Shown: piece after piece, positions 16,001 through 62,373 of the stretch
Position numbering within the stretch: the stretch's first letter is position 1
Layout of the letters: each line of letters opens with the position of its first letter
Assembly (NCBI GenBank): GCA_000182565.2
Contig: KQ257460.1
Reading direction: 5' to 3' (one strand)
Length of the DNA: 64,000 bases
Source of the DNA: Spizellomyces punctatus DAOM BR117
Taxonomy: Eukaryota
Notes under the pieces: generated by a model
The model's input: only the letters and a program-made list of their open reading frames with translations
What the model was told of the DNA's origin: nothing
The model's database searches: none
Position numbers and translations under genes: made by a program

Positions 16001-19000
16001 ACAATTTGTTGGAGCATGCAATCCTCCGACCGACCCTGGTCGTGTGCCATTATCACATCGATTCCTCCGGCATGCCCCCGTTATGATGGTTGATTACCCA
16101 GGCGAGGCGTCCTTGATGCAGATCTACGGCACATTCAGCAGAGCGATGCTGAAAGTCGTTCCATCCTTGCGTGGTTATGCTGAGCCTTTGACCGCAGCGA
16201 TGGTAGAGTTCTACCTTGCGTCTCAGGAAGAGTTCACACCCGATAAGCAACTTCATTATATCTATTCCCCCCGTGAACTGACCCGCTGGGTCCGCGGCAT
16301 ATTTGAGGCAATGAAGCCTTTGGAAAGTTTACCTGTAGAGGGGCTGGTGCGCATCTGGGCACATGAGGCGCTCCGGTTATTCCAAGATCGCTTGGTGTCC
16401 CAGAAAGAACGCCAATGGACAGATGAAATGATAGAAACCGTCGCATTAAAGCACTTCCCGGGCATCAATCGGGAGGCAGCGCTTGCGCGGCCAATTTTAT
16501 TTTCGAACTGGCTATCAAAATACTATGTACCAGTCCAACACGGCGAACTGCGGGACTTTGTCAAGGCCCGACTCAAGGTCTTCTACGAAGAGGAGTTGGA
16601 TGTGCCATTGGTCCTTTTCAACGATGTTCTTGAACACGTACTGCGTATCGATAGAGTTTATCGTCAAATGCAGGGACACCTTCTCCTCATTGGTATTAGT
16701 GGGGCGGGAAAGACCACGCTCTCTCGCTTTGTCGCCTGGATGAATGGCTTGAGTGTGTTCCAAATAAAGGTGCACAACAAGTATTCTGCGGCAGATTTCG
16801 ATGAAGATTTGAGAACCGTTTTGCGCAGGGCCGGGTGCAAAGGAGAGAAGATCTGTTTTATAATGGATGAGTCCAATGTGTTGGATTCTGGTTTCTTGGA
16901 GAAGATGAATACCCTTCTGGCGAATGCTGAAGTTCCAGGGTTGTTCGAGGGTGATGAGCACGCATCTCTCATGACCGCCTGTAAAGAGGGGGCACAGCGA
17001 GAGGGATTGATGCTCGACAGCACTGAAGAACTGTACAAGTGGTTCACACACCAGATCATGAAGAATCTACACGTGGTCTTTACTATGAATCCACCTCAAG
17101 ACGGGCTAGCGTCTCGAGCAGCAACGTCCCCTGCCCTGTTCAACCGTTGTGTACTGGACTGGTTCGGCGATTGGTCTGACCAAGCTTTCTTCCAAGTTGG
17201 AAGAGAGTTTACACAAGCATTGGACCTTGAAATGCCAGGGTACATTGCACCTATAGAGTTCCCGGTTGTTTATGAGGACCTTCCCATGCCTCCTACCTAT
17301 CGTGATGTGATCGTCAATGCGTTGGTTTTCATTCACAAGTCGTTACACGAGATCAACGAAAAACTTAACAAACGCCAAGGGCGCCTCAACCACGTCACCC
17401 CTCGACATTATCTGGATTTCATTAATCACTATGTCAAACTGTTCCACGAAAAGCGCGAGGATCTTGAGGAACGTCAGCGTCACCTCAACGTTGGTTTGGA
17501 TAAATTGCGAGAGACCGTTGTTAAGGTGGAAGAGCTTCGGAAGAGTCTGGCCATCAAGCGATCAGAGCTCGAGGCGAAGAACCACGAAGCCAACGAGAAA
17601 CTGAAGAAGATGGTTGCTGATCAGCAGGAGGCAGAGCAAAAGAAACAGGCGTCGCTGGAGATTCAGCAAGCTATTGCAGCACAGAATCAAGAGATAGAAG
17701 AGCGCAGGAAGGTTGTGTTGCAAGATCTTGCTGAAGCAGAACCGGCAGTGCTCCAGGCTCAGAACAGCGTCAGTAGCATCAAGAAGCAACATTTGCAGGA
17801 AGTGCGGACAATGAGCAACCCTCCGGAGGCTGTAAAAATGGCTATGGAATCTGTCTGCATGCTATTGGGCCATAAAGCCGACTCGTGGAAGACTGTTCAG
17901 TCCATTATCCGCAAAGACGATTTCATTCCGAGCATCGTTAATTATGATACTGATAAAATGAGCGCAAAGGTGCGAGAGGATGTGGTGAGTTCTTATCTTG
18001 CCAACCCGAAATATAATTTTGAGACGGTCAATCGCGCCAGTCAAGCATGTGGCCCTCTCGTACAATGGGTGATTGCTCAAGTGAAGTACGCGAGCATCCT
18101 CGAAAGAGTCGGACCGCTGCGTCAAGAGGTACAGCAATTGGAAGCGAGCGCCGAAGTGACCAAGACAAGGGCGGCGTCGATTGAAACCATGATAAGAGAC
18201 CTGGAGGAGAGTATCGGAAGATACAAAGAAGAATATGCTGTGCTTATCAGCGAAACACAGTCTCTGAAGACCGAGATGGAGACTGTCCAGACCCGAGTTG
18301 AGCGAAGTTTGCGACTGCTAGACAACCTAGCGTCGGAAAAGGAGCGATGGGAGTCAGGCAGTCGATCTTTTGAAGCACAAATGGCAACCATCGTCGGAGA
18401 TGTGCTTCTATCAGCAGCATTTATGGCATATGGAGGCTACTTCAGTCAGCAGTATCGAGAAACGCTGTTGCAGCGGTGGTCCGCACATCTTCGGAGTGCT
18501 GGCATTAAGTCTAAGCGCGAGCTTTCAATTCCAAACTACCTGTCTATCGCCGACGAACGTATCGCATGGCAAGCAAACTCGCTTCCAGCGGACAATCTCT
18601 GCACGGAAAACGCCATCATGCTTAAGCGCTATAACCGATACCCTCTCCTCATCGATCCATCCGGCCAAGCTACGGCTTTCCTTCTGAACGAATACAAAGA
18701 TCGTAAGATAACGGTGACCAGCTTTTTGGATGACTCGTTCCTGAAGGTCCTGGAGAGTGCACTGCGATTCGGAAATCCGCTACTAGTTCAGGATGTGGAA
18801 CATCTGGATCCCATTCTCAATCCCGTCCTTAACAGGGAACTGCGACGCACCGGTGGACGTGTTCTTATCCGATTAGGTGGTCAAGATATTGATTTTTCAC
18901 CATCTTTCACGCTATTTCTATCTACGCGAGACCCATCCGTGAATTTCCCTCCGGACTTATGCAGCCGAGTGACGTTTGTGAACTTTACGGTAACTCGTGA

Positions 19001-22000
19001 GAGCCTCCAGAGCCAGTGTCTCCATGAGGTTTTGAAGGCAGAGAGACCAGACACCGATCGCAAGCGCACAGATTTGCTCAAACTTCAAGGGGAATTCCAG
19101 CTGAGACTACGCCATCTTGAGCACTCGTTGCTTCAGGCGCTCAATGCGTCTAAAGGCAATATATTGGACGATGACACCGTGATCTCAACATTGGAAACCT
19201 TGAAGCAGGAAGCAGCGGAAGTGACGCGGAAGGTCGAAGAAACGGATATTATCATGCAGGAAGTCGAAAATGTAACGGCGGTGTATACACCGCTAGCAAA
19301 CTCTTGCAGCGCGATCTTCTTCATTATGGAACAGCTCAGTCTCCTGAACCGCTTTTACCAATTGTCTCTTGATTTCTTCCTGGAGATCTTCCAGTATATC
19401 CTGCACAACAATCCGAATCTGAAAGATATTCGGGATCCAGCTCAGCGGTTGCAGATTTTAGAACGGGACCTATTCCAGAATTCCTTCCGGCGAACATCTC
19501 GGGCATTGCTTCACGATGATCAGATTATCTTCGCGATTATGCTAGGACAAGTGAAGTTACGGGGGGCTGCCGAACAGATTGATGCGCGGGAATACGACTT
19601 CTTGATTGGAGGCGCCGGCGAAATTGCATCGGCGCAACCTTCGACAAAACTTGTCATTTCTTACGGCGAGGAGGTAGCGCGCCGCGTCGCAGAATGCAGC
19701 CGACTGACAGAATTCAGCAAGCTGCCATTGCACATGGAGACGAATGATAAGATATGGAAAGCATTTTTGGCCGAAAGGGAGCCTGAACTGAACGTCCCGA
19801 GCTGGTCTGAGGAACACGCCCGGCGAGGTAAAGATTCATCCAGTAATTGATGCATTTATTTCTCTATTTACTGAGTGCTGCTTTTGTAGCACCCATAATT
19901 ACGGCGTTTAATAATTTGATAATTGTAAAGTGCATGCGTCCTGACCGTCTCATACCTGCGGCTGCAGGTTTTGTCCAAGCAATTTTCGGCCCAACTTTCT
20001 TGAATGCAACGGATCTCAATTTGCGGTCAGTTGTTATGGAAGAGATGGTAAACCCGGCGCCTATAGCGCTTTGTTCCGTAGCCGGCCATGATGCGAGCTA
20101 TCGTGTAGAAAACTTTGCTGCTGAAATGTCTGCGCGCATGGCGTCGGTAGCCATGGGCTCGGCGGAAGGGTTTGCTCAAGCAGATGCGGCTATTGCCACC
20201 GCTGTGAAAAGTGGAACTTGGGTTCTTCTGAAGAACGTGCATCTGGCGCCGATATGGCTTGGCCAGTTGGAAAAAAGATTGCACAGTATGAAAGCCCACA
20301 ATCAATTTCGCCTGTTTCTAACGATGGAGACGAATCCAAAGGTTCCTGTGAACTTATTACGGATGTCCCGCATTCTGATGTTCGAGCCATTACCTGGTAT
20401 AAAGGCTAATCTATACGAATCGCTCAACGCTATTCCACCGACTCGAGTGAAGGCGCCCAGTGAACGAGCGAGACTACACTTCTTGCTTGGATGGCTGCAC
20501 GCGGTTGTGCAAGAGCGACTTCGGTATTCTCCTCTGGGGTGGTCAAAAGTGTATGAGTTCAATGACTCTGACCAAGACATGGCGCTTACCGTGATTGACC
20601 ATTGGATTGACACCGCCGCACAAGGTCGTGCTAATGTGCCGCCAGCAAAGATCCCATGGAAGGCTATTCGCACTTTGATTAAGGAAACTGTTTATGGAGG
20701 GAAGATCGACAATGAGTTTGATCAGTACTTGTTGAATAGCTTTGTCGATCGATTATTTACTCCAGCCAGTTATGATGTCAATTATCCCCTTGTCGAGGAA
20801 ATGGACGGGATCTCGAAATTGGCTATACCCGACGGCATACGTATGGAGCAGTTCTTGGAGTGGGTTGACAAGCTACCAGAACAGCAGCCGCCCACCTGGC
20901 TGGGGTTACCAGATAATGCAGAAATGATGCGAATGATTCTAAAAGGTATAGTCAAAACTCAGGGATGTGATCATCGACTAGACTGTTTCTCACTGCCCGA
21001 GTAACTAGGTGAACACATGCTGAGCAACGTCCGTAAATTGAGATATAGCGCCGAGGACGATGAGATGGCTTATATCGCTCCAACCCCCGGTACTGCTGGA
21101 AATGGGGCAGACCAATCGGGTCACCCCACTTGGATGCGCGGATTATCCGCGATGGTCACAGGATGGCTGGAGCTACTACCCGAGGTGAGTCTGCTAATCA
21201 TGGTTCCCCACAAGAAACCGAGATGTCTAAGTGTCATCATATGTAAATCATTTTTAGGCTCTACCATCGATGAGAACAGACGGCGATGTAACCAAAAGCC
21301 CTCTTTTCCGTTTCTTTGGGCGCGAGCAAGAAATTGCACAGGATCAATTAAGAGTTATTCGGGAAGATTTGCTAGATTTACAGAAGATGTGTACTGGCAA
21401 ACAGAAGCAAACGAATCGGTTGCGTTCTCTCTCCAATGCCATTTCAAAAGGTTGGGTCTTTTATCTTACTTCCCCTTCATACATCGATGGTACTAAGAGC
21501 ACTCATGTCGACAGGCAATATACCCCAACAATGGCTCACATACAAAGTTCCAAAGCGGCTTGCCCTGAATCAATGGATGCAGGACTTTAATCAGCGCCTC
21601 AAGCAGCTGAACGTGATCGCGAAAGCTGCCCGATATGATAATCTACAGATTTGGTTGGGCGGCTTCGCCATTCCCGAAGCGTTTATCACAGCCACCCGCC
21701 AGACGGTCGCGCATATCACAAAGTCCTCCTTGGAGGAACTAGAGCTTGATGTTTCTATCGGCTTTGACGAGAAGATCAGCTCGAATGCCGAACACACGGA
21801 TGGCTTTGCTTTGTCTGGTAAGCTCTTCATTTTGCTATTTTAAAGAAAATCTTATCAACTTGCTTACAAACTTGGAACATTCATCAAGGTATGCGATTGG
21901 AGGGTGCCGAGTGGATAGATGACGGTCTTGTGCTGTCCTCGGCGTTGCAGCCGCGACCAATACAGATGTTTATCCGATGGGTGAAGAGACGTGGAGACAA

Positions 22001-22148
22001 GACAGGGCGAGATGACGTTCTCCTGCCTGTGTATCTGAATGAGGAGAGGCAGGATATCCTGTTCACCGCTCAACTTCGATCAAAAGAGCCTAGCGATGCT
22101 TTAAAAATGATCCAACGCTGCGTGGCTATCCTGGCTACGACGTTCTGA
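7049..22148 (+). CDS. DYN1: Cytoplasmic dynein 1 heavy chain, multi-exon
   Basis: Tail motifs [22 protein letters not shown] and [17 protein letters not shown]. Four P-loops: [24 protein letters not shown] (intron-split) and GISGAGKT. Also stalk coiled coil, AAA5/AAA6 and a C-terminal cap ending [10 protein letters not shown]. Confidence 0.98.
8899..8998. other. Assembly gap (100 N) inside the dynein gene
   Basis: Run of exactly 100 N. Confidence 0.99.
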
Positions 22149-29957: not shown

Positions 29958-30795
29958 TTACACAAGAGCTAACAGAGCGGAACGAGAACGGCGCAAAAGA
30001 AAAGAAAACAGCCGACAGTCAGTAACGAATACGAGGATCCGTGGAACTGTGTCATCACCTCACCTTCGTATGGGACAGGGCTGATGGTCGTAGGGCGGTT
30101 GTTTTTGGTGGACACATGGTGGGCCTTGGTGGGACCAACGGGCTGGCGCTTCAAGTTGAAAGAGACTAGGGGGCAAAACCTCTTAGCATCCATTCGAGTG
30201 GTTCACAATGTAATACGATCCGTCATCTTCAATTCGACACATACCACCCTTCTCTTTGGCTTCCTTCTTGGCAGCAGCATTAGCCTTAACCCGACGCAAG
30301 AAATCCAATCGGCAGTTGGAGTGCTTGATGTGTTCGACACGGATGTTGACACGTTTCTCAATGTAGCGGTTTCCAACCTGCTTGTTGATAATGATACCAA
30401 CGGAGCTCTTGGTAACATTGTAGATGATACCAGTTTTGCTATAAATGAGTAGTAAGCCACAACCGAACATCCACCTTCCCTCCTCCAACTGCGAAAACAA
30501 GTGGAAACTCGTACCCGTGGTAGAACTTGTGGGGCATACCCTTGTGGATCGCACCATTCGCCTTGATGTCGACGATGTCACCAACCTTGTAAGTCTTAAG
30601 ATAGGTAGACAACTTGACGGGACCCTTCGCCCGGAAGTCCCGAGAGAAAAGGTGCCTAGTCCGCGCCCTGAGACCTATTGGAGCAAGATTTTCCCCAAGT
30701 TCAGTTCCAATCCCTCGCCCAAAATCATCCCAATAAACGCAGAAACGTGCTCTCTTCCGCCAAAACACAATCCACTAACCGAATGAGTGAGGCAT
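29958..30795 (-). CDS. RPL21: 60S ribosomal protein L21 (eL21), multi-exon
   Basis: [89 protein letters not shown]. Confidence 0.97.
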
Positions 30796-33946: not shown

Positions 33947-36900
33947 TTACATCAAAGCCTCTTCCATTTCTTTGGGGTCCGGTGAATTTGGCCGCCGACA
34001 TATTTTCTTATGTCGCTGTTTCCATTTTTCCATATATTCCACTCTCCGTTCCATCTTGTCATATAAGATCTCCATCGATCTGCAAGCAGTTCAGAGAACA
34101 CAGGGTCAATATGTATATCATATGGCGAAAGATGGTGGGTTTTACATACCGTTTCTGCCTCAGCACTTCATCCACTCTTATCCGCACGCTCTCTCGTTCT
34201 GACACAATTTGTCCATGTGCTTCGTGTAGGAGATTCTCCAGCTTTTCAACCCTTCGTTGCAAGAAACATATAGTTTCCTTTTCAGCCTTTGCCTCTTCAG
34301 CCAGCACTCTGGTCTCGAGACTGTCCACGCGTACGCGTCTCTTCCGATCCGTAACTCCAAGTTGGCCCTTTTTCTGCTCGTGCTCCAGCTTCAAGCGTTG
34401 TACCTGCTCCTCTAAAGCAGATGTACTCTCCTGTTGTCACGATGTGTCAGCACCAAGTTATTCTTAAACGGGTGTATCGCAGCCAGTACCTTATTAGCGC
34501 GTGCCGCGTCTTCCAGACGTGTCAATTGCGCCTCCTTGGAAGCCGACTTCTCCGCCCATTCTCTAAACATTGCAACATGCAAGATTATTATACTGAATGT
34601 CTACATGCCAATCACGCGTTAGTGCAAACCAACCGGCGGTTTTTCATCATATCCTTCTCCATCTTTTGCAACGTTGTCCGATAGTGCGCCATAACGGCAT
34701 TCACATGTTGGATGTTAACAATAACCTGCGTCTTCATGTCTTCGAAATTCCTCGATGGCTTTTCTTCAAACTAAAGTCATTGGTATTCTGAGTTAGTCTT
34801 GGGTATGATATGGCTACGTGACCCTAGCAAATGGAGTACCTTCACACCAGGGATAGTTTGGAGTACGTTATTCATGGTCAATATCACTTGCAACTGCTGG
34901 CTGACTGTCAGCATCGTTGCCTCACAATCTTTGATATGGCGGAGGAACCTCTCCTTTTGTTCGCTGAACAATTTTCGGTCTCTGGAAGCATCGTCCTGCA
35001 TATCACGAATGGTTGATTTTGCTTGCTCAAGGGCTCCTTCTTTTGTTGCCTTGTCCTTCTCTAGATCGCGGATTTTTTGTTTGAACTGCTCTACGTCCGC
35101 TCTCTGTCGTTGCAAATCACGGATGGTTGATTTTGCTTCCTCAAGGGCCCGTTCTTTTGTTGCATTGTCTTTCTCTAGATCGCGGATTTTCTGTTTGAGC
35201 AATTCTACGTCCGCTCTCTGTCGTTGCAAATCACGGATGGTTGATTTTGCTTCCTCAAGGGCCCGTTCTTTTGTTGCATTGTCTTTCTCTACATCGCGGA
35301 TTTTCTGTTTGAGCAATTCTACGTCCGCTTTCTGCCGTTGCAATTCACGGATGGTTGATTTTGCTTCCTCAAGGGCCCGGTCTTTTGTTGACTTGTCTTT
35401 CTCCAGATCGCGGATTTTTTGTTTGAGATGTTCTACGTCCGCTCTCTGTCGCTGTCTGAGCAGTTCTACGTCCGCTCTCTGTTGTTGCAAATCACGAATG
35501 CTTGATTTCGCTTCCTCAAGAGCCCCTTCCTTTATTGACTTGTCCTTCTCTAGATCGCGCATTTTCTTTTTGAGCAGTTCTACGTCCGCATTCTGTCTTT
35601 GCAATTCACGGATGGTTGACTTTGCTTCCTCAAGGGCTCCTTCTTTGGTTGACTTGTCTTTCTCCATATCGCGGATTTTGTGTTTGAGCAGGTCTACGTC
35701 CGTTCTGTGTCGTTGTTGGAGCAGCTCTACGTCCGCTCTCTGTTGTTGCAAATCACGGATGGTTGACTTTGCTTCCTCAAGAGCCCCTTCTTTTATTGAC
35801 TTGTCCTTTTCTAGATCGCGGATTTTTTGCGTAAGCAGTTCTACGTCCGCTCCTTGTCGTTGCAATTCACGGATGCGTTCTTTCAATTCTGCAGTTTCTT
35901 CCAATAATATTTCGTGATGCCTAGCTTCCAGCTCCCGTTTTTCTTGTTCTTCTTTCGCTTGCCTGGCGGTACTCTCATCCCGCCATTTCGCCTCCAACTC
36001 GAATATTGTTTGCGTTTGAACCTCAAGCTCACGGCGCAGGTACATCATGTCCTGAGCGGTCGTTTCATTCGCGGTCTGGAAGTTCCAAATCTCTTCCTTG
36101 TATCCTTCCACTTCTAGTTGAATTTGCTGAAGTAAACTGGTAACGTGGGCATAGTCGTTTTCAAGAACGGCGGCGAGTTGGCTGTTCTTTATTTCAAGTT
36201 CTGCCTGGAGAGCGAGTAGTTCCAAGCTCCCCGGAAACGGGTTGCTGTGCGAAACGTCGCCGCTAACGGTTACGGATGTAGGGACAGGGTCAAGTACTTC
36301 ATAAAGCGCATTGTTTTGCTTATACTCCTTCTTGTGTTCCCTCAGCTCTTCCTGAAGGCTATTGTTTATCTTCTTGAACCTTTCATTCGCCTTCGCCGAA
36401 TCCGTCTTCGAAGCTTCCTCGTGTTTACGCTGCCGCAGTTCTTCATAAAGCGTATTGTTCTGTTCAAATTTCATTTTAAGTTCGCTCAGCTCTTCCTGAA
36501 GGCTATTGTTTATCTTTTTCAACTGTTCATTCGCCTTCGCCGAATCCGTCTTCGATGCTTCGTCGTCTCGACGTTGCCGCAGTTCTTCATAAAGGGTGTT
36601 GATTTGTTGATACTTCCTTCTGACTTCACTCAGCTCCTCCTGAAGGCTATTGTTCGTCCTTTTCAACCTTTCAATCGCCTTCGCCGAGTCCGTTTGCGAT
36701 GCTTCCTCGTCTCTACGTTGCCGCAGTTCTTCATAAAGGGTATGGGTTTGTTCATACTGCCCTTTGACTTCACTCAGCTCCTCCTGAAGGCTATTGTTCG
36801 TCTTTTTCAGCCTTTCAATCGCCTTCGCCGAATCCGTCTTCGATGCCTCCTCGTCTCTACGTTGCTGCAGTTCTTCATAAAGGGCGTTGATTTGCTCATA

Positions 36901-39570
36901 CTTCCCTTTGAGTTCGCTGAGCTCCTCCTGAAGGCTGTTGTTCAACTTTTTCAAACTTTCAATCGTCTTCGCCGAATCCGTTTTCGATGCCTCATACGCG
37001 TCTCTACGCTGCCGCAGTTCTTCATAAACGGTATTGGTTTGTTCATGCTTCCCTTTGAGTTCGCTCAGCTCTTCCTGAAGGCTACTGTTCATCTTTTTCA
37101 ACCTTTCAATCGCTTTTGCGGAATCCGTCTTCGATGCCTCATACTCGTCTCTACGCTGCCGCAGTTCGTCATAAAGGGTATGGGTTTGTTCATACTTCCC
37201 TTTGAGTTCGCTCAGCTCTTCCTGAAGGCGGTTGTTCATCTTTTTCAAACTTTCAATCGCCCTCGCCGAGTCCTTTTGCAATTTTTCATACTCGTCGCTA
37301 CGTTGCCGCAGTTCTTCTTCATAAAGCGTGACGTTTTTTTCATACTCCTTTTTGAGTTTGCTCAGATCGTCCTGCAGGCTATTGTTCAGCTTCTTCAACT
37401 TTTCATTCGCCTTCGCCGAGTCCGTTTTCGATGCCTCATACTGGTCTCCACGTTGCCGCAGTTCTTCATAAAGCATATTGCTTTTCTCATACTTTTTTCT
37501 GAGTTCGCTCAGTTCCTTCTGAAGGCTATTGTTCATTTTTTTCAACTCTTCATTCGCCTTTGAGGAGTCCTTTTGCAGTTTTTCATACTCGTCGCTACGT
37601 TGCCGCAGTTCTTCTTCATAAAGCGTGACGTTTTTTTCATACTCCTTTCTGAGTTCGTTCAGGTCGCCCTGCAAGCTATTGTTCATCTTTTTCAACTTTT
37701 CATTCGCCTTCGCCGAGTCCGTTTGCAGCTCTTCATACGCGTCTCTACACTGCCGCAGTTCCTCTTCATAAAGCGTAATGTTTTGTTCATAGTCCTTTTT
37801 GAGTTCGGTCAGGTCGTTCTGAAGGCTACTGTTTATCTTCTTCAACTCTTTATTCGCCTTCCCCGAATCCGTTTTCGATGCTTCATACTCCTTTTTGAGC
37901 TCGTTCAGCTCTTCCTGAAGGCTATTGTTGATCTTTTTCAACTCTTTATTCGCCTTCCCCGAATCCGTTTTCGATGCTTCACACTCCTTTTTGAGCTCGT
38001 TCAGCTCTTCCTGAAGGCTATTGTTCATCCTTTTCAATTCTTTATTCGCCTTCGCCGAATCCGTTTTCGATGCTTCATACTCCTTTTTGAGCTCGTTCAG
38101 CTCTTCCTGAAGGCTATTGTTCATCCTTTTCAACTCTTCATTCGCCTTCGCCGAATCCGCTTTCGATGCTTCATACTCGTCTCTGCGTTGCCGCAGTCCT
38201 TCGATGTTTTGTTCATAGTCCTTCTTGAGTTCGATCAGCTCTTCCTGAAGGCTACTGTTTATCTTTCTCAATTCCTCATTCGCCTTCACCCAGTCCGTTT
38301 TCGATTCTTCGCACTCGTCTCTATGTTGCCGCAGCTCTTCATAAAGGGTATTGTTCTTCCTTATAAGCCCTTCATTCACCGAGTCGAACTTATCGCGCTA
38401 TTAATCAGGAACTATATATTAGTAGACCATTGATATGAAAAGTCAGGCTACGGCACACCTCTCTTATCAAGGCGTGGTACATTTTTCGATACATGTATGC
38501 CTGGCGATTAGGAATAGTGGGTGTGAGGTCCATATTTTAAGTCACGGGACTTGGAATCTTACTCTGGTTTCTAGATTTGCCAGCTGCGTTGGAGTTATGT
38601 TGTAAGCGCGCTCTTCGAAAAAAATCCTCATCTTTAAATTGATATTGTCCTTGCGGAGTCTCTGCATAACCTGTAAGAACCAGAAATGTTTGTTCTTTCA
38701 CGAATTCCAGGAGAGAAGGACATTGGCATACATTACCTCACGATATTGTCTGAACCCATATTCATTAGGATCCACGGAGTAGTCGGAATCTTTCTCAATT
38801 CTCCACTCTACCCTGTCCTTCGGGTTGGGATCTTTATAGAGGTTGTACTTTTTTGGAAGATCAGGTGGAAACACATAAAAGTCGGCCTCGACCTTCTCGG
38901 ACTTTTGAGTGAAAGCAACCTGCCCGCTTGGCAGCTCCTCAGTATAGCGATGCAGCTCGTCCTTCGCATTGGGTGCAAGAACCCAGCCTTTCTCCAAAGC
39001 TTCCTTCAGTGGCTCCTCCTCTTCCAATCTTTTCACCACCCAATCATCGGCTTCGCCATCCGTTGAAGCTTCCTCACCATCCTCTTCCGGTACAATGAAC
39101 TCTATTCTCTTCTTGAAACCAAAATTCTCAGGTCGTATTGGCCGCGGCAAAGAATCCACATGATTTGATACTTTTGCAAAAACTTCTTCCTCGGGCACAT
39201 ATTCTGATACGACTGACCTAGCATCCAACCCATCCACTGTATCGTACACCGACCCCTCTGACTTCTGATCGTCGCCATTTTCCTCTTGTATATGCGGCCG
39301 TGGCACTACTTTCCTCGGTTCGACTTCCTCCACATCATGGAAAGGCATATCGCTCAGAAAGAAGTCCTCATCGTCTTCAACCTCATAGCAACCGGGAGGG
39401 GCTTCCTCATCCATAATGTTTGGACATTCAGAGAAGCCAAAGAATGGAGACCCAGGAAGGGAATCCTGTGCTTCGTCCATTGTGCCCAGCGAGATCGTCT
39501 GTTCGAACGCGTTCCCGGACGAATCCATGACAATTGACATCTTGGATGCCGTAATGGATGATGCAAGCAT
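33947..39570 (-). CDS. Giant (about 1700 aa) coiled-coil protein with a CM1-like motif, two tandem-repeat arrays and a MASC-like C-terminus (Mto1/ApsB/centrosomin-like)
   Basis: In-frame GT-AG splicing joins exon 39570-38737, exon 38670-38563 (VMQRLRKDNINLKMRIFFEER..), a 14-codon exon and the 1200-aa ORF, then four small 3' exons ending at stop 33947. Confidence 0.72.
35000..35875 (-). repeat. Coding tandem array B: 7 units of 114 nt (38 aa), two carrying an 11-aa insert
   Basis: Unit RADVELLKQKIRDLEKDxxTKExALEEAKSTIRDLQRQ. The motif tctctgtcgttgcaaatcac recurs at 35101 and 35215 (period 114). Confidence 0.93.
36300..38370 (-). repeat. Coding tandem array A: about 15 units of 96 nt (32 aa) or about 144-150 nt (48-50 aa)
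   Basis: Recurrent EASKTDSAKANExLKKxNNSLQEELxELK, with or without YEQxxTLYEELRQRRDEY. gctattgtt recurs at 37921 and 38017 (period 96). Confidence 0.93.
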
Positions 39571-39706: not shown

Positions 39707-40824
39707 TTACATGCGACGCTTTTCCTTCTTCATTGTTCGTCGCTTTTCCTTCTCCTTTTCCAGGCGCTGCTTTTCTTGAAGCTCCTTATTTCTTTGAACC
39801 TGCTTCTGATGCTCTGCCTGCGCTTGTAATCTCTTTGCCTGCTCCGCTTGCTTCACGATTCTGAGGCAATAACAAATGTTAAAGTCCAGATTTTTGAATG
39901 GCAACGGCGCCAACTTACTCGGCATTACGGTTCTTTGGTAGCAATACTAAAAGAGGTGCATGTTGAACAACCTATGAATGATCACGCCCATGGACAGCCA
40001 ACAGCTTACCTTCGTCGGATGAACTCTTCTTATCATCCTTCTTGCCTTTATAAATGAACTCCACCTCGCCGTCCGCTGTCTCCACCACTTCGTCTAGATC
40101 GTATCCATACTATACCCGAAGAAGCCATGCACTATCTCATTACTTGAAGCACTACCGTCAACACAAAGCGGCGTAGCATTTACCTGTGCTAATAGACGCT
40201 CCCGAGCTTGTTTCTCTTCCTTGCTCAATTGTTTTTTGGCAGGTTTGATTTCTTGCTGCGATATGGTCGCTTGAAGCGCTTCCCGCTCTTGTACTGGGTA
40301 AGTGCGTATCAGCCAAGCGTACACTACGTTCGTTTTAAGCAGTGGCCCACATACGTTTTACCGCCTCCAGTGCCTTTTGTTTCATCTCTTCTTCCTGTCG
40401 CCTTGCTTTTTCTCGCCACTCTGCATTGCGCCGCAACATCTCGTCTACAAGCTGCTCTACCGGTTGGTCCTGAAGGTATCGAAGTAAATTCTTTTTCAGT
40501 GGTTTAATGTGTACTCAAGGGCTCAGTGGTACACTTACGGTTGCCTCCGACAAAAACTCTACAATCACCTCCCGCCGTTCGCCATCCTCCATGGTCTCCT
40601 TATGCAGTATCGACGTTAGCGTCATTTAAAAGATGGTTCTCAGGTCCCTTGTCGCACCTCTGAACAGAGTTGTGTTATATATTCTGAAAACGTCTGCAAA
40701 TATAAGGCAAGTCTCAAATCGGTGTCCTTCAGTTCATTGATCTGATATACAGCTTCCTCACTTCATCGTTGATGCTGAGGTCCATAAGGCTGGCGGTAAG
40801 CCACTCATCCCACTCATTTGTCAT
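39707..40824 (-). CDS. CCDC43: CCDC43-like coiled-coil protein, multi-exon
   Basis: MTNEWDEWLTASLMDLSINDE/TFSEYITQLCSE/ETMEDGERREVIVEFLSEAT...RERLLAQ/YGY...KNRNAE...EKEKRRTMKKEKRRM*, matching the CCDC43 layout from memory. Confidence 0.78.
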
Positions 40825-42704: not shown

Positions 42705-45700
42705 ATGATCTACCGGCATTGTCGACTCCCCGTGAGCATTCCCGTGCAGTCTTATTGAGGAAGCAAGCAAGAAAACCCAAACTGATATGTGGATTATCGC
42801 GATCAGGTGTCCATTTCATCATTATGCCGCGATCGTCGACTATTTTCGACCCGCCTAAGGGCGCCAGCAACGTCGCATGTGTATGACATTCACCCAGAAG
42901 TACGCGAAGCATTGCGGGCAAAAAGGCCGGTAGTTGCATTAGAGTCTACAATAATAAGTCATGGTGGGGCGACGGACGTTATCCTTCAAATACAGGTAGT
43001 TCCCACTCATGCCTAATTCATGAGTAGGAATGCCCTATCCGCAAAATCTAGATACTGCTTTGGCAGTGGAGAGAATTGTGCGGGAGGAAGGCTGTGTGCC
43101 TGCAACTATTGCTGTCCTTGATGGACGCATCAAAGTTGGTATGTTTCGACTTCCTGCACAGTCGCTTGGAACAGCTTCTGAATGTTTGTTTTCTTGCATG
43201 TAGGGCTCTCCAAGGATGATTTAGAAAAGCTTGCTCGAACTGGTCTCAAAGCACGAAAGACTTCTCGACGAGATTTAGCTCTAGTTGTTTCCCAGGTAAG
43301 AAGGCATATATTTGCTTATCATCGGCCTAGACGACAATTGACATTCCTATCAAGGGAGTCGTAGGAGCTACCACAGTGTCTGGTACTATGCTGATTGCGC
43401 ACCAGGCAGGAATCAAGGTGTTCGTGACTGGGGGAATTGGTGGAGTTCACCGAGGTGGCGAAGATTGTACGTTCTAGAGTTGTTCCTTTTGAAAGTCTTC
43501 ATAGTTGATCTTTAATGACCCGTCAGCGATGGATGTCAGTGCTGATCTGACCGAACTTGGAAGGACGCCGGTTGCTGTAATATGTGCCGGTGCAAAGTCG
43601 ATCTTGGATATTGAGCGAACCTTAGAGTTCCTGGTATGTCACTACGTTCGAGCTTGGTCGTCAGTGTGATTCCATAGACCAATTAAACTTGATACACCCC
43701 AGGAAACTCAAGGGGTAACGGTCGTTAGCTATGGAGATAGCGATGAGTTTCCAGCCTTTTACACTCCGAAATCCGGTTACAGGGTGAGATCAGTTGATTA
43801 GCGATTTAGTTGGATAAACGGAGGAATTAATCTCTTTGGTATAGAGCATCGCCCACCTTAAGACTCCTGACGCATGTGCGTCGCTAATTAGTGAGTAACT
43901 TGTATAACTGTGCTGGATGATGAGCCAAGATTTGAACCTGGTATCGTATCACAGAGGCGAACAATGATATTCAATTGCAAAGCGGCATGGTTATAGCTGT
44001 ACCGATCCCAAGTGAAGATGCGCCAAAGGACGCGTGGAGGATTGAAAAGGCGGTTTTGGACGCTGTCAGCGAGGCAAAGTGGGTGACATATGCTGCCGTT
44101 GTGAAAGAACATCACCCTTTGAGTCTTCAATATGTTACAGTACAAAGGGCATTAAAGGCAAAGACATAACGCCCTTTCTTCTTGATCGGGTAAAGCAGAT
44201 TACACAGGGGGAATCTTTGAAATCCAGTAAGCTTGTTACACCGACTCAGTGTTTTGGCACAGAGCACCCGTTGCTCACGCATCTGTTTATAGATATTGCC
44301 TTAGTTAAGAACAATGCCCGTATTGGCAGCCGTATAGCTGCTTCATTTGCGGCTCAGTGTAATGGGGCTATAATCAATTCGTCAGAGTCATCAGCCGCGG
44401 CTTCGCGACCTATGATAATAGGAGGCACTGTTCTCGATGTATCGGCCCGGTTTGACGATGGCCCCGAATGCAACGGGATGCCATCATTAGGAACATCGCA
44501 TCCCGGTACTTGTAAACAGTCGATGGGTGGGGTGGGCCGGAACATGGCGGAAGCATGTTATCGCACAGGCGGAGATCCATATTTTGTTAGTGCTGTCGGG
44601 GACGATGTGGCGGGAGACGGCTTGATTCAAGAGATGGCTGGCGCAGGAATGGTACGTACGCGATCATGTGTATCTGAAAGATGTCAACGTCTTAAGGCCC
44701 ATGCGCAGGATGTATCTGGGATAAAAAGGATTGTAGGTCATCAGACAGCGACTTACAATGCGTTTCTCAAATCCGACGGGGACATGCTAGTTGCGGTGGC
44801 TGACATGCGCATGCACGCAGAAATTGATGGAGAGGAGGTCCGTGTCGCCATTGAGAGATCCTGGTTTGCATGCTGAGCTTTGTGTCGGCGCTCTTAGGTC
44901 TCTACAATCATCAAGAGGAACTTACCACCCTTTGTATCAATTGACGGAAACTTGAGCCGTCGTTGCACACAACGGATTTTGGAAACTTGTGCAGAGAATA
45001 ACATTCCAGGTGCGTTGCTGCAGATGTGATAAGATGATCCAACAGAGCCCATGAGTAATAACAACCTTCAAGTTCTATTTGAACCAACATCAGAGATAAA
45101 GGCTTTCAGATTATTCAATCTCGACCACAACTTGTTGAAAGCTAGTATTAGATACGCCACCCCAAATGAAGGCGAACTCAGCGCAATGGCCTGGGGATAC
45201 CAGTCTGCTAATGATCCATGCAATGGTGAGACAACTAAGAACTTATTGCTCCTGTCTGCGATTAACGCAACTGCTCTCCAAGGCCTGCCTAACCAGGAGG
45301 ACGATGCGGCTCGTTTGCGCAGAGGCAGAGGATTGATGTGGGGGCAGAACAATCTTCAGTCAAACATTACCGTTGTCGGTAAAGTGATACCTACGATCAT
45401 TGTCAAACGCGGGCGTGAGGGTGTTTTGATTGCAAGAGATGGTTCAATATCCGCAACCCTTGCGCCGACACAAATTTATAATGATTGTATCAGCGTCACT
45501 GGCGCAGGAGACAGGTAACATACATCCTCATTGTCATATATGGTTGATTGCAAATTAATGTCTCTTTGTAGCATGGTTGGAACACTGGTGACAGGCCTGT
45601 CCCGCCATTATTCACTGAAATCGGGTGAACCTGCAGTGGAAGATCTGCGTAGGTTTGCCGGGGCTGGTATGCGCGCAGCGGAAATGTCATTAATGACCGA

Positions 45701-46674: not shown

Positions 46675-47720
46675 ATGTCAAAGTCATCACAATTCCTCCG
46701 CGAGTACAAGGTGAGGTTCAATGCCAGAGAAAGCAGTTTGTTCAAGACACTTGCAAATTCTGACGGCTGGGTCGGGGCCTAATTCATGGTGCAACATCGC
46801 GACTGACCTTCATCTCATCTCCCATGCCCATGTGACGTAAATAGCTCGTTGTGGTTGGTGGAGGTGGTGTTGGAAAGTCCGCTTTAACTATACAGTTCAT
46901 ACAATCACATTTTGTGGACGAGTAAGTCGAGCGATGGAGATGGCGTTAGGACGGCCATGAAGCCCCAGTTCTAATCGCGAGATCCCTCATTGCCCAACGT
47001 AGATATGACCCAACAATAGAGGACTCATACAGGAAGCAGTGCGTCGTGGATGAAGAAGTGGCCCTGCTGGATGTGCTGGACACCGCTGGGCAAGAGGAAT
47101 ATAGCGCGATGCGAGGTAGGTCACCTGCACAATCCTATTTCTGCGATTCGTACTCAAATGGATATATTTGTCGTTTTAGAACAGGTGAGCGACTATTATG
47201 ATGCCTCGGGTATCGAAGGCGCATCCACATCTTGAAAGAAGTGGCTAATTTGGGAATGTGTCATGCCAACAGTATATGCGAACAGGAGAAGGCTTTCTAT
47301 GCGTATACTCGATCACCTCACGTAACTCTTTTGAAGAAATATCAACCTTTTATCAGCAAATCCTTCGGGTGAAAGACAAAGATTACTATCCGATCATCAT
47401 TGTTGCCAACAAATGTGATTTGGAGAGCGAGCGTGTGGTTAGCACACAGGAGGGTCGAGATCTGGCGAGAAGCTTTGGTTGTAAATTTGTGGAAACTTCG
47501 GCAAAGCAAAAAATCAACGTTGATGAGGCGTTTTACAGTCTCGTTCGTGAGGTTAGCACATTTGGAGCTGCCACTTGTCATCACATTTATCATTCTCTGG
47601 TGCTGATACGTCAATACCCGTCAGATTCGGCGGTTTAACCGTGAGAATGATGCGAGGGGTACATCGAGGAACTCTCCATCAGGAAGGAAGAAGAAGAAGA
47701 ATAAGTGCACTATTTTGTAG
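46675..47720 (+). CDS. RAS1: Ras small GTPase, multi-exon
   Basis: [81 protein letters not shown], ending in a polybasic tail and CAAX box [10 protein letters not shown]. Confidence 0.97.
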
Positions 47721-51033: not shown

Positions 51034-52983
51034 CTAGGCATCAAAGGCATCCCAAAACACTTGGTTTTCGCTTCCGTCCAAGAGGCGTGTGACGGGCAGC
51101 GTCGCAGGACGCTCATACTTTTTGATATATTCCTAAAAACAACAGGCGTTTGCATGAGAAAGGAAGGTGAGAAGACAAAAAAAATGAGCCCTAAAGATTC
51201 TATACTCACCAGAGCATATTGCATTGAGCGACGACGTTCTTCCTTGTCGGCTCCTTTGCCCACCCAAACAAAGACTAAGGAGACAGCGTAACCTTGCGTT
51301 AGATAAAAACAAGATGAAATAGTCTGGCGCGCACCCACCCTCTGGTCCACAATCAAACACAAAGACATCATCTGATTTCAGCTGGCTCTTGCTCACATTG
51401 CCTTTGGCTTCTTGAGTAAACTCGAGTGGTCCGCTCGCATTAGAGAGCCTGAAGAGGAGCTTTTCAAATGATGAAATGCTACTCAATGTGCGCGTCTCGC
51501 CTTCTGCAGCGGACGCAATCGGACCAGTCTTTCCACCCAGATGCCCGTAGAAGATGTTGACATCAGCATCGGTCTCGTCTATCAGTTGTAGAGTCAGCAA
51601 GGACGGTCTGACTGTTTCCGCGCGTTTTAAAGTTTTAATTATGATCTCAAACTCACCAAAGACAGACACCTTGGCATCCTTCCTCTCGTCGTCCAATTTG
51701 CGCACATACTCTGCAGCCTTGTTCCTCTCTACACCACTAGCCTTCGAGCCATTCCACTGAAGAATCTCTTTGCCGAGATCAAGAACAAAGACGTCCCCAG
51801 AGTTCAGGCTGTTCATTGAGACCGGCACCTGCTTAACGAGCAGCGTGTGGATAGGCCTGGTCTTTGGAAGACGAGGAACGGTGGGGGGAATCGAGTAGAT
51901 GTGCAGCAGACGAGGCTGGAACGATTGGGCATTTGTCTCGACATGGCGGAAACCAGTTTCTGTGCCGCCTTCCAGAATCTGGAAGACCTATGATGGGACA
52001 TGAGTTGATGAATGTTTTGATTTGTGATAAAGGACATTTCGGTGCAAGCTTTACCTTGAAGTAGGACAGAAACAACAGAGATTCAAAGCCTTGGATCTGA
52101 GAAAGGATCAGCAAGAGATACAATGGAAAAAGAAATTTGATTTCTACAACTCCCAACCTCGCGGTGCTGGACAGGCGTTGTTCCCAAATCTGCAAAGAGG
52201 TAATGTGAGCTAAAGACAGTGCATGCGGCAATGAAATGTCGTACGCACAATCATCAAGCTCAACGGTCTTGTATGCAGCAGTCCCGGCTTCATCCTTTGA
52301 TTTTACCATGAGACATTTATAGGTGCTACTTGCATATAAGGCTCGACTTACTTGGGTGGTTTCGAGTCCTAACCAAAAGTGGATGTCGTGCCGCAGTGCA
52401 TCAGAATTGGGGAGCTTGTAGGTCTATTGCATATCATATGAGTACTTGCATCTAAGGATATGAGAAGCAGCGCTATGGGCGGCCTGCACTTACATTCAAC
52501 ACAATGTACGAATCACCTGGAACAAAACACTTGAGGTTGGTAGATGAGGATTTCATAATTTGGAACAATGGACATACCAGTGTGAAATTTTCCATAATCA
52601 GTCTCAGGCCAAGGGACAACTTTGAATTGCTCAATTCTCCAAACTTTGAGGCCACTAAAATGTAGAGTAATAACGGAACATTAGAGCATGTTCAATCACA
52701 AAAGATGAAATAGTCAACGTACGGCTTCTTGCCAGCGCCTTCCCAAGCCTTTTCCGTTTGAGCTGCTTCAAGACGGACCTTCTTTTCGAGCTTTAATGAA
52801 CACATTAATTAGTCTATTTCTTGTTAGCGCTCGTCATGGCACCAAAGAAAAAAGTACCTCGGTTCCGAGACCGGCAATATTAGTTTCGCTCAAATCTTGC
52901 AAACAAATTAACAGAATAAGCAAACGTATGCATTTATTCTTTAGCGATATAAAGTAATTACCTAGAGTAGGAGATTTCTTCAT
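51034..52983 (-). CDS. Three-domain gelsolin-family actin-severing protein (severin/fragmin-like), about 13 exons
   Basis: ETNIAGLGTE/LEKKVRLEAAQTEKAW, GLKVWRIEQFKVVP, GDSYIVLN, DIHFWLG, DEAGTAAYKTVELDD, LNSGDVFVLD, DDVFVFDCG, VFVWVGKGA, FWDAFDA*. Confidence 0.93.
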
Positions 52984-55100
52984 TTTTGAAAGGTTGCGAA
53001 ACTAGCGATAAAGTGCAATACTTGAAAGAAGGAGGAGGAAGAACGAAAAGCTCTAGAGATTTTAAACAAGAGCGAAACCCTCGCCTTCCAGACGCGTTCG
53101 CTCGAGTTGTGGCGCGTCGTGCGGCATTCAAAGTCTTTTTGGACTTTGTTTACAAGACTATATAGTGTTTGTTGGAAGCTGAGGATGTCAACTTTATTGT
53201 TTATGACCCTCAAGTATACGCTTATTGGGATCTACGCAACAAGAATGCAGTGAGCATCGCTTGTGTAGAGCAAACGCCCACGCACTGAATGCGAGTTGCA
53301 GCAGCAGTACGAGTGCCGCACACATGAAAGTGGATTGTAGCAAATTACGCGGGTTCAGAGAAAGTCAAACTAAAAGAGCATTTACGGTGGTGTATCTGCA
53401 TACATTGAGCATAGAGTGGTGTATGTGCAGACATATTGAATTGCATGGCAAGTTCTTTCATGCGTGGAATTTCATGCCCAGTTGATGCTACGGAGATTGC
53501 TTGGATTTAGGCATACATGCGATGTACAACTCATCTCCATTATTAATTTTCAATTCTTCTACTCTCTTTTTCAGCAGGTTCAATGTTATCAAAACCATTC
53601 AATCCTTTCAGGTGACAACTTGTAATGTTCAGCATTCTCCAATCTTCATATCTTTTTAATAAAGTGATGGGACAAGCATAAATAGTGTCGGGTGAGAGGA
53701 GCATCATCTTGCCAATCTTCTCGCGTTCCATCTGGTAAAAGGTGCACTAGATCTTTCCAGTTGGGGCCGAGGTGATGCAGAGTTGGCACTGGGTGATATG
53801 CCTGCCAATCGGCACTGACGAGATATCTTAGTGGGAATACTTCTGTGGATCACAAGTTTGTCTGCTTTCTCACATTGTCATTTGATCGATGCTTTCATAT
53901 CACTTTATGCCGACGAGCACCTGCATAAAGTGTGATCAACAAGAGCATTTTTGGCACATGGACATTTGTTCTTGTGCTGCACATCATGTCCTTTTCTTCT
54001 GCAAGAATCGCTGATGAGTGTCCGTGAGCCAATCTGCATTATCACGTGCCGCGTGCATTCAAAAGTTAACCACATTACAACCTGGACTCAACCATGGACC
54101 ACGAATGTGGTTTAGGGTCCAGGGTTCCCCCATCCCCACATCCAGAAGAGTATGTTTATGGGTTGTTCATGAGTTTGTGCGTAGTTTATAACAATATCAT
54201 TTTCATACTCTAAGTCTTTGCAACATCCAGTTGTTACCAGACTGCGTACAAAAGTATGTTTATTAGCTGTACAGTCAGCTTACATTTCCGATAGTCCTAA
54301 GCATTAAATACCAATCTCCCGATGATCTTTGTCCAAAATCGTGAATGTTTTACTGTGTTTGTAAATCGCTCGATCCGATCCTTTGCATAAAGAAAATGCT
54401 CCGTGAATCGGAGCCATCGTGTGGGGCACAACTCTAATCCAGATTGGAGGTAACGGAAATCGTTCTCGTGGTGACAATGTGATTGTATCCCTCCCGATTG
54501 TCCATCCCCAAAACCAATTCCGCGGAGGTTTATTATATTGTTCGTCGTTTTCTAAATCGCCGCACTGTCGGTGTTTGGCCGGAGGGGATCGGCCGCCAGC
54601 GTCCCAAAGCAAAGCGCCGCATAGAAAAACAAATAGTACATCACCATGAGCCGAGGTCGGGGCCCGGGCCCATCCAGGCCTTCGGTCACGCCAGAGGATC
54701 CAAGCGAACCACGACTTCCCGCTCACTAGGATCCAAAGGGACCACTACCGATTTAGGATCATGACAAAATTAAATATATTAGTTAAGCGGATGATTCGTG
54801 GCGCTATTCTCTCGTCTGGAACCATTGGATGACCACCGGAGTTGAGCCGGCTTACATCCTCTGGAAGCTCGATGGGGGCTGGACCCCGTCCTACGAAAAA
54901 GCCTTGGACTTGCAATGTTTTTGTCAAAGGCCTCGGTTACGGGCGTTTGTCATTGGCGTCAAGAAAATGCGGAGCTTTATGTTGGGCCCGTTTTTGGAAC
55001 ATGTGCTTTGACGAGGCTACTTAAAGACAAGCGTATCGCCCTGACCCCCCGTCTGTGGAGGTTTCTTTTGGCTGGTCGTTTTTCTATGCAGGTTCCTATC

Positions 55101-56449
55101 ATGGTTCGTCAGTCCATGGAAATGCTTTCGTCCGGTGTGCAAGCTACGTCTCCGCCAGTGGGCTCCACAGTGCGGTGAGACCTCTTGTATCATGTTTTTG
55201 ATCGTGTTTGGCAGTCATGGTGCAGAGAGTACGAAATATGCCTTTTCGCGCGCTGAGACTGCAAACAACGAGTGCAATTGGAATATGCTAAATGATTCAT
55301 ATGCATTTCACAGGATGGAGAATCGCGTGGGGCTACACCAAGATGATGACTGGACATATGAACTGATTGTGCGTCAGCAACCTATTCGAGCACGAATGTG
55401 CGGATTTGCGAAAACTTTGGAGCGTCGATTAATGTACGTTCCTAAATTTTATCTTGAAAGTCAACGTGATTCCTAGGCCTCCTGCTCATTGTTTTGGTTT
55501 TGTGCCCTTGCATTCAGTGACCCTCCACCAATATTAGAACTCATTCAGAGCAGAGGCGGTGTGCCGGTTGGTGTTGAGTAAGTCAGCTTGGCGTCATTTG
55601 ATTGCTGTGTTCGGAACTTGGCGTCTAATGCCAATTCATTTAGCTACGAAAATGGCACTGCATTCATATGCCATGCGAGTCTTCGTGCCGAAGACGGTGA
55701 GACAGATCGCTCCTTTGTCGTTCGGTCTCTCAACCCACCAGAAGACTATCGAGCGGATGCCCAGAAAATGACCAGGCGTCCATCGCTCGATTACCCAGCA
55801 TACGCATCAAACTCTCACCGGCCTGCTTACCGATCACCACCCTCGACAACCGCCACGGCATCACCACAGGAAACATCGACACCTGATGAGACAGTGTACA
55901 AGACATTGGTTGGAGGGGTCGTCGTACCATGCTGTGAGTGTGCACGGTGCATTATTGCTACTCAGATTTCTGACTGGTTGCGATTTACTAGCGTTCCTTC
56001 ACGACCTTCAAGGCCGCCCAGGAATGTACTTTGTATTCCACGATCTCAATATACGGACAAGAGGAATATACCGGTTACATTTCGCAGTCATGAGCCTGAA
56101 GGGGTAAGTGTAGTGTGCGGTGCGTGGAGCTGTAAAGGGCTTACCTCATCGCTCCATGCAGATACCTACCAATGTCCCGTGCGATGGCCACCGTTGTGAG
56201 CGAACCATTCGAGGTTTTCACACCCGCTTTCTTTCCCGGTACAATGGGTATGTAGTACACTGTTTTTGCACTCTAGTTTTGCGGTATAATAAATGCTGCC
56301 TGGTTTTCATAGAGTCAACGGAGCTTTCGCGAGCGTTCGCTCGCCAAGGGGTCCCAATACATTTGCGGCAAGACTACTCGGCAATACGACTCCAACCGTT
56401 TCACAAGCCAAAGCGAGCGGCCGCAGAGAATAATGGCGCGGAAGAGTAA
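55101..56449 (+). CDS. Velvet-domain transcription factor, multi-exon; start uncertain
   Basis: YELIVRQQPIRARMCGF..ERRL/IDPPPILEL, FICHASL, TLVG, LHDLQGRPGMYFVFHDLNIRTRGIYRLHF, SEPFEVFTPAFFPG, STELSRAFARQGVPIHLR. Confidence 0.92.
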
Positions 56450-62100: not shown

Positions 62101-62373
62101 GGTTTGGCTGCTTGGCGCCTGCGATCTTCTTCGTCGTCAGCTCTCGGGATCAAGGCCTGGGAAGTGGCAGGCTGAGAAGGAGTCCGAGTCGCATTACTGG
62201 CAAGGGGATGGCGGAGGGAAGGCCCGCGCGAGGTGCCGATGGTGGGCGACGGCTTCTTGAATGGGCGCTGTTGTACGCAGGAAATTAGAATATCCAAATC
62301 GGCGATGGTGGGATTAAAGAGCCTCAATACAGCAACCTACCGCGGCCCAGTCGTAATCGACTTCAGTAGGCAT
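59168..62373 (-). CDS. DUF4449/DUF5923-type (HAM1-like) fungal protein, multi-exon, spanning an assembly gap
   Basis: LREGKLPTNEQL..IDTKNRDEVIQRFVWH, LIITDNEFRKLL, YIPIPRIEHED, FYYRKKSGFPKIKDAGVADV, LYTALSPLLNTLIRNRVIETLETQIR. Confidence 0.75.
60360..60459. other. Assembly gap (100 N)
   Basis: Run of exactly 100 N. Confidence 0.99.

Follow-up and report, generated by a model that had tools for sequence, protein, structure and literature searches.

A lineage-restricted candidate gamma-tubulin-complex receptor with a CM1-like segment and an unclassified anchor in the chytrid Spizellomyces punctatus

According to the accessible portions of the papers cited, centrosomin motif 1 (CM1) is made of two conserved segments, the gamma-TuNA (CDK5RAP2 residues 59-88) and the inhibitory gamma-TuNA-In (residues 96-114) (Yang et al. 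2023), and F75 of CDK5RAP2 points into a hydrophobic pocket of GCP2, the F75A substitution abolishing binding to the gamma-tubulin ring complex (Rale et al. 2022 and a second source). In Mto1 orthologs, the motif is described as lying ahead of a long coiled coil. The CM1 of Spc72 is degenerate and short yet accepted as functional (Lin et al. 2014). Here we analyzed a 64,000-nt stretch of the Spizellomyces punctatus DAOM BR117 genome (contig KQ257460.1, assembly GCA_000182565.2), hereafter the window, in which a reading of the letters alone had proposed a hidden Mto1/ApsB-like gamma-tubulin organizer at positions 33947-39570. We found that this locus is, by its frame and splice sites, a single eight-exon gene whose predicted product carries a segment resembling the gamma-TuNA half of CM1. 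On balance, and with some reserve, we favor the view that it encodes a lineage-restricted receptor for gamma-tubulin complexes with an unclassified anchor.

A CM1-type protein is expected in a chytrid, because a Batrachochytrium candidate and chytrid proteins with short conserved domains have been published. Cdk5rap2 was reported in all fungi examined by Ito et al. 2019, as far as the accessible text goes, and their source data table lists a Batrachochytrium dendrobatidis candidate, EGF78562, found by hmmsearch. A 2025 chytrid centriole paper (PMC12659703) states, in its available portion, that chytrids have no clear orthologs of CDK5RAP2 or pericentrin, only proteins with their short conserved domains. 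The present protein resembles EGF78562, by description, as a chytrid protein; that candidate was put in the CM1 family by hmmsearch alone. In the literature that we searched, pairing Spizellomyces with CM1, Mto1, ApsB, or centrosomin, we found nothing on this protein, the one Spizellomyces paper that mentions "CM1" not treating it in its accessible part. That literature thus describes neither this gene nor its half-motif and unclassified anchor.

One eight-exon gene and its ortholog

On the minus strand, the locus shows stop-to-stop frames of 298 aa and 1,206 aa, plus several short ones. Reading of the DNA followed by scripted assembly yielded an eight-exon frame running from 39570 to 33947, with 1,721 codons and no internal stop, in which all seven introns begin with GT and end with AG and measure 66, 62, 61, 69, 71, 59, and 70 nt in order (Table 1). 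The original prediction had joined a "290-aa acidic ORF" (open reading frame) to a "1200-aa ORF" of coiled-coil type, in frame, through two small exons. This joining is borne out by the 1,721-codon model and by an ortholog described below: the coordinates that it gave (38737, 38670, 39570, and 33947) and both peptides that it quoted match the DNA exactly, the first ORF corresponds to the 298-aa frame, in which 278 aa lie between the ATG and the donor site, and 1,186 aa of the 1,206-aa frame are exon.

A word-index search with exon 1 retrieved a hypothetical protein, SpCBS45565_g04277 of Spizellomyces sp. 'palustris' (1,531 aa, 94% identical; hereafter P0001). Its stretch ...GFRQYREVMQRLRKDNINLKMRIFFEERSYNITPTQLANLETRAYMYRKMYHALIRERDKFDS... 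contains what the two small exons encode, ordered as in our model, and a global alignment of the two proteins has no gaps at any of the seven exon junctions (7/7). Because P0001 carries both small-exon translations and is gapless at all junctions, the splice model is more than chance; this independent support comes from an annotated protein rather than a transcript. An alternative seven-exon model with a 165-nt second intron was dropped, since P0001 holds a 14-residue exon within that intron. The annotated start of P0001 corresponds to the ATG at 39480, 30 codons inside the first ATG at 39570. The two genes have the same eight-exon junctions, and their products are 94-100% identical in the N terminus, the CM1 exon, the central block and the tail, whereas they differ in length (1,531 vs. 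1,721 aa) and in both repeat arrays, which are replaced by other repeat families. As to the expectation that automated annotation could split or miss such a gene, the sister-species annotation has the gene whole, though named only as a hypothetical protein and with no precomputed Pfam domain.

A specific but sub-threshold resemblance to CM1

The CM1-like motif lies at about residues 273-299 of the 1,721-residue model and spans the junction of exons 1 and 2, the last six codons of exon 1 (FRQYRE) forming the start of the match. When exon 2 was scanned alone, its sole Pfam match was Cnn_1N (PF07989), at E=4e-5; this match scores 24.1 bits and aligns 25 residues to positions 9-33 of the 74-position profile, and the 51-aa stop-to-stop frame that holds this exon gave 24.4 bits (E=3.4e-5). 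No Cnn_1N match was obtained at E<=10 in the adjoining exon 4, with only weak generic coiled-coil matches in its 1,186 aa, nor at E<=0.001 in any of 145 other stop-to-stop ORFs of at least 95 aa in the window (25,843 aa). Searching exon 2 with phmmer against 177,635 PDB sequences returned four matches at E<=10, all of them human CDK5RAP2 CM1 constructs; the alignment pairs RLRKDNINLKMRIFF-EER with human ELKKENFNLKLRIYFLEER and has 12 of 18 residues identical. In the language-model-based ESM Atlas, residues 225-310 of P0001 retrieved Cnn_1N clusters at ranks 1 to 3 among named matches (scores 0.89, 0.88, and 0.86), the family accounting for nine of the 10 best named matches.

We lengthened the PDB alignment manually, using the human sequence given by Rale et al. 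2022. In this extended alignment, the gamma-TuNA dimer positions F63, I67, L70, and L77 are occupied by Y, M, L, and L. Exon 2 is basic (pI 10.25), and C-terminal to the motif come over 1,100 aa of coiled-coil-type sequence, rich in repeats and free of proline, a placement as in known receptors. Compared with CDK5RAP2/centrosomin (CM1-CM2), which the motif matches best in Pfam, the PDB, and the Atlas, the Spizellomyces protein is alike in the core motif, in the hydrophobic dimer positions and in having the motif ahead of a long coiled coil. It differs in the residues discussed below, in that neither a CM2-like match nor any similarity outside the motif was found, and in the 278-aa acidic region that precedes the motif. 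The CM1 part of the original prediction therefore held in that three kinds of comparison name the CM1 family, and fell short in that the Pfam score stays below the gathering score. We consider the resemblance to be specific though sub-threshold, and the segment to be, judging from these alignments, probably a true CM1 homolog.

Several observations weigh against this reading. The gathering score of Pfam for Cnn_1N is 28.5 bits, and the score was lower in every context (24.1, 24.4, and 17.8 bits); only 25-28 of the 74 profile positions were aligned, all within positions 3-33. The original prediction had itself named as contrary evidence a CM1 score no better than that of generic coiled coils. 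Exon 2 alone is specific, but in full-length P0001 the Cnn_1N match (17.8 bits, E=0.0039) is level with those to ATG16 (19.9 bits, E=0.00089) and Fez1 (18.0 bits, E=0.0042), which are of generic coiled-coil level. The four PDB matches have poor E-values, between 0.086 and 1.2, and are different constructs of one human protein, while the Atlas scores are all below 0.9 and are graded only as leads by the Atlas search itself. In the hand-extended alignment, the position of human F75 is an isoleucine, hydrophobic but not Phe, and the position of L84 is lost. The second CM1 segment, gamma-TuNA-In, is unmatched, Cnn_1N positions 34-74 being aligned in no scan of exon 2, of the 51-aa frame, or of full P0001. 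A single-sequence AlphaFold2 (AF2) prediction of the CM1 region of P0001 gave a core pLDDT below 50, with part of it drawn as strand. Furthermore, all non-repeat parts are 94-100% identical between the two species, so that conservation does not single out the motif, and neither the word-index searches nor the exhaustive phmmer search of exon 1 found a relative outside the genus. Lastly, Pfam scans detected no known domain for targeting to microtubule-organizing centers (MTOCs) in the tail or in full P0001.

Part of this shortfall has an explanation: the Cnn_1N score is sub-threshold because the match covers only the first half of CM1, the gamma-TuNA. Given that a degenerate, short CM1 is accepted in Spc72, a sub-threshold motif can be functional. 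The AF2 prediction mentioned above, made on 209 aa of P0001 with the motif inside, had an overall mean pLDDT of 63.7 and was uninformative, with long helices drawn from just after the motif. A two-copy complex prediction of P0001 residues 236-330, run without controls, scored 0.00 and counts neither way. As a side observation, the LANLETR at the end of exon 2 can be compared with the ...RMNIE ending of a Xenopus construct as a remnant of gamma-TuNA-In; no tool aligned the two, and the comparison is speculation.

The observations against CM1 homology could also be accommodated by a lineage-specific structural coiled-coil protein, such as a fibrous, rootlet-like, or tethering scaffold, in which the CM1-like stretch would be due to chance or convergence and would not bind gamma-tubulin complexes. 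Such a scaffold would fit the sub-threshold score, equal in whole P0001 to generic coiled-coil matches, the isoleucine at the key Phe position and the missing second half of CM1, as well as a tail that has no recognized MTOC-targeting domain, whose Atlas matches are TPR-, Uso1-, and Rab5-binding-type coiled coils, and the lack of homologs found outside the genus. It fits less well with the density of the match (24 bits packed into 25 residues, and identity to the human core at 12 of 18 positions), with its confinement to a small exon and its absence from the coiled coil of about 1,200 aa beside it, with three different methods (Pfam, PDB, and Atlas) naming the same family while none of the 145 control ORFs matched Cnn_1N, and with the position of the motif ahead of the coiled coil, as in known receptors. 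We hold the scaffold explanation to be unlikely, and prefer that of a true, if diverged, CM1 segment.

Acidic N terminus, turning-over spacer, and conserved tail

The region encoded by exon 1 is acidic, as had been predicted (67 D+E against 29 K+R, pI 4.29), and AF2, run on this sequence alone, gave it no confident fold (mean pLDDT 40.5). Compared exhaustively by phmmer with 1.84 billion representatives, exon 1 had two matches, of which P0001 is the sole credible one. The other, a PAS/histidine-kinase protein (P0002, E=6.3e-4), was judged spurious. In word-index searches, P0001 was the only relative among 1,632 candidates for exon 1 (longer proteins) and, among proteins of 842-2,680 aa, the only one of 50 candidates for the CM1 region (P0001 residues 190-330) and of 1,247 for the tail (residues 1285-1531). 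In the length ranges covered by these searches, no protein from the genome of the window itself appeared. With no relative found outside the genus, the conservation seen in the motif is that between two sister species, and the flanking modules look, from these searches, either genus-restricted or too fast-evolving to trace.

The giant repeat spacer of the original prediction is real and comprises two tandem arrays, found with Tandem Repeats Finder (TRF), on either side of a unique central block that matches no Pfam family (Table 1). Array A includes a sub-array of period 96 with 93% matches by TRF, and its neighboring units are 82-97% identical in DNA; in array B, TRF detected four copies at 92% matches, and one pair of neighboring units is 99% identical. 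Since neighboring units are 82-99% identical in DNA, we consider the arrays to be young. In P0001, the stretch from about residue 370 to 1290 has quite different repeat families in both spacer positions, such as those with units around EKLKKEIEALKQTAKDAEKSYMLHVSSLKK and QELRQTQLRLEEAE. As the two sequences read, the spacers are replaced between the sister species, not merely resized, and in the predicted protein a coiled-coil spacer, free to vary in sequence and length, links modules that are conserved. Strand asymmetry is strong throughout 33947-39570 (AT skew -0.34 to -0.39). Three ORFs on the opposite strand, over the repeat arrays, showed no credible Pfam family, with one marginal match at E=0.00093; given the purine-rich coding strand indicated by the AT skew, they look like by-products of that strand and of the repeats and could mislead an ORF-based gene caller.

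Table 1. Features of the gene and of the strand opposite, with identity to the P0001 ortholog
Feature	Position	Strand	Description	Identity to P0001
Exon 1	38737..39570	-	278 codons from first ATG at 39570; donor end ...GFRQYRE, then GTAATG	234/248 (94%) after P0001 start
Intron 1	38671..38736	-	66 nt, GTAATG...CAG, in-frame TGA; CAG ends at 38671	
Exon 2	38563..38670	-	36 codons, VMQRLRKDNINLKMRIFFEERAYNITPTQLANLETR; opens at 38670 with VMQRLRKDNINLKMRIFFEER; CM1-like (gamma-TuNA-like) core exon	35/36
Core of exon 2	38661-38608	-	RLRKDNINLKMRIFFEER; CM1-like core	
Intron 2	38562-38501	-	62 nt, GTAAGA..CAG	
Exon 3	38459..38500	-	14 codons, AYMYRKMYHALIRE; in-frame junction to long exon	14/14, between same neighbors
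Intron 3	38458-38398	-	61 nt, GTGTGC..TAG	
Exon 4	34840..38397	-	1,186 codons, coiled-coil type; two tandem arrays and unique central block	
Array A	36293..38355	-	~14 copies, 144-nt period; units of 32 and 48-50 aa (DSAKAN..LKK.NNSLQEEL..); TRF and unit listing	162/645 (25%)
Central block	35902..36291	-	Unique sequence, about model residues 1031-1160, conserved between the two species	49/50 (residues 1051-1100); 46/50 (residues 1101-1150)
Array B	34994..35876	-	Seven 38-aa units (ADVELLKQKIRDLEKDK..KE.ALEEAKSTIRDLQRQR), 114-nt period; unit listing	98/300 (33%)
C-terminal module	33947..35001	-	Model residues 1461-1721, ~260 aa; end of exon 4 and exons 5-8; presumed anchor	
Exon 5	34770-34634	-	Assembled gene model	
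Exon 6	34562-34490	-	Assembled gene model	
Exon 7 (penultimate)	34430-34150	-	Contains LQRRVEKLENLLHEAHGQIVSERESVRIRVDEV	
Exon 8	34079-33947	-	Stop codon at 33949-33947	
Exons 5-8 together		-		201/207 (97%)
Last 121 residues		-		121/121
Antisense ORF, 380 aa	34775-35917	+	Over repeat arrays	
Antisense ORF, 447 aa	36220-37563	+	Over repeat arrays	
Antisense ORF, 289 aa	37564-38433	+	Over repeat arrays	

The C-terminal module is basic (54 K+R against 46 D+E, pI 9.31) and highly conserved, and we propose that this tail is probably the functional anchor. In Lin et al. 2014, as far as accessible, the MASC logo is drawn from Pfam Mto2_bdg (PF12808) and the PACT logo from PACT_coil_coil (PF10495). 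At E<=10, neither family matched full P0001 or any of exons 5-8 when each was scanned by itself. Regarding CM2, no Pfam family matched the tail and no Cnn or CDK5RAP2 chain was recovered by phmmer of the last two exons against the PDB, the presence of a CM2 model in the Pfam copy used being uncertain. The latter search gave nothing better than ODAD1 (E=0.19), followed by Erv2 and syntaxin at E>=1, whole P0001 had no PDB match at E<=0.01, and the Atlas search of the tail brought up generic coiled coils only. By these comparisons, the putative anchor is not recognizable as MASC, CM2, or PACT, and the MASC-like tail of the original prediction, on which Mto2_bdg was silent and the Atlas and PDB saw nothing but generic coiled coils, finds no support.

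This result bears directly on whether the gene product belongs to the Mto1/ApsB/Spc72 class and is built as CM1-coiled coil-MASC, the penultimate exon supplying the MASC targeting helix. Spizellomyces is a fungus, and in the scheme of Lin et al. 2014, in its accessible portion, fungal CM1-only receptors carry a MASC. The protein shares with this class a CM1-type motif, extensive coiled coil and a C-terminal module that is highly conserved between the two species, the tail lies near the C terminus as MASC does in Mto1, and Spc72 offers a precedent for a short, degenerate CM1. Unlike the members of the class, the Spizellomyces protein has no Mto2_bdg signal, and its tail showed nothing specific in the Atlas and PDB comparisons. 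Moreover, the available sources describe Spizellomyces as an organism with centrioles rather than a spindle pole body, and Mto1 MASC as operating via proteins of the spindle pole body, Sid4 and Cdc11 among them; according to the accessible text of Ito et al. 2019, Sid4 went undetected in chytrids, such that components on which MASC reportedly depends would be missing. We therefore judge membership in the Mto1 class to be very improbable. Least credible of all is a receptor of the pericentrin/Spc110/Pcp1 type (SPM-CM1-PACT), which could draw on the very long coiled coil and on the position of the motif some 270 residues from the N terminus, leaving upstream sequence that could hold an SPM, but for which PACT_coil_coil is lacking at E<=10.

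The gene is surrounded by unrelated genes, in a compact eukaryotic genome. Upstream, a gene on the same (-) strand (39707-39946) stops at 39707 with a Lys/Arg/Glu-rich tail, and the roughly 140 nt from there to the first ATG leave very little promoter room; the start used in P0001 lies 30 codons further in, at 39480. Downstream, a plus-strand frame without classified family ends about 290 nt from the gene. Farther away, a multi-exon dynein heavy chain gene occupies 7736-22145 (+), with DHC_N1, DHC_N2, AAA_6 to AAA_9, MT stalk, Dynein_heavy, and Dynein_C matches over at least 10 ORF pieces; we attach no functional meaning to its proximity. Pieces of a gene with the Velvet-factor domain, a fungal developmental regulator family, lie at 55045-56104 (+), and one ORF at 44046-44876 (+) has both Indigoidine_A-like and PfkB kinase matches, which suggests a fused gene of the pseudouridine-metabolism type. 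Housekeeping and other genes that the control Pfam scan recognized lie at 36-1022 (-), 5896-6580 (+), 30186-30774 (-), 47249-47635 (+), 51136-51987 (-), and 59171-62336 (-); they encode Ssl1/TFIIH, ribosomal proteins L14/L23e and L21e, a Ras-family GTPase, a gelsolin-repeat protein, and a HAM1-like protein.

A model for the protein and its implications

Based on the above, our favored reading is that of a gamma-tubulin-complex receptor in which the modules follow one another, from the N to the C terminus, as an acidic region, a basic and presumably helix-forming segment akin to the gamma-TuNA half of CM1, a coiled coil of more than 1,100 aa whose two arrays would serve as a length-variable spacer, a conserved central block, and the basic C-terminal module of about 260 aa. 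The gene model, the order of these modules, the specific likeness to CM1, and the turnover of the repeats are seen in the sequences; the binding, dimerization, localization, and regulation set out next are inferred. The protein would dimerize through its coiled coil, placing the CM1-like helix on a GCP2/GCP3-type interface of gamma-tubulin complexes, like those of CDK5RAP2 and Spc110, where it would recruit or activate these complexes. The C-terminal module would in turn fix the molecule at a microtubule-organizing site, for example the centriolar centrosome or the basal body of the chytrid, and the acidic N terminus, standing beside the basic motif, may regulate access to it.

A bolder proposal, which we regard as rather doubtful, is that centriole-bearing fungi possess a fourth class of gamma-tubulin-complex receptor. 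Its members would have a "half CM1," that is a gamma-TuNA without gamma-TuNA-In and with an isoleucine in the Phe pocket, would be regulated by their acidic N-terminal flank, and would be held by a lineage-specific anchor that is neither MASC, CM2, nor PACT, while the reach of their spacer would be rapidly retuned by repeat expansion and replacement between sister species.

These results leave what is known about CM1 itself unchanged. The gene clearly illustrates how functional modules can be conserved while the coiled-coil spacer separating them turns over from one sister species to the other. The pericentriolar proteins of chytrids are poorly defined, and this gene provides a concrete candidate for a link between gamma-tubulin complexes and the centrosome or basal body. 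According to the available portions of the literature, Spizellomyces punctatus can be transformed and strains with tagged tubulin and SAS-6 exist, making the candidate directly testable.

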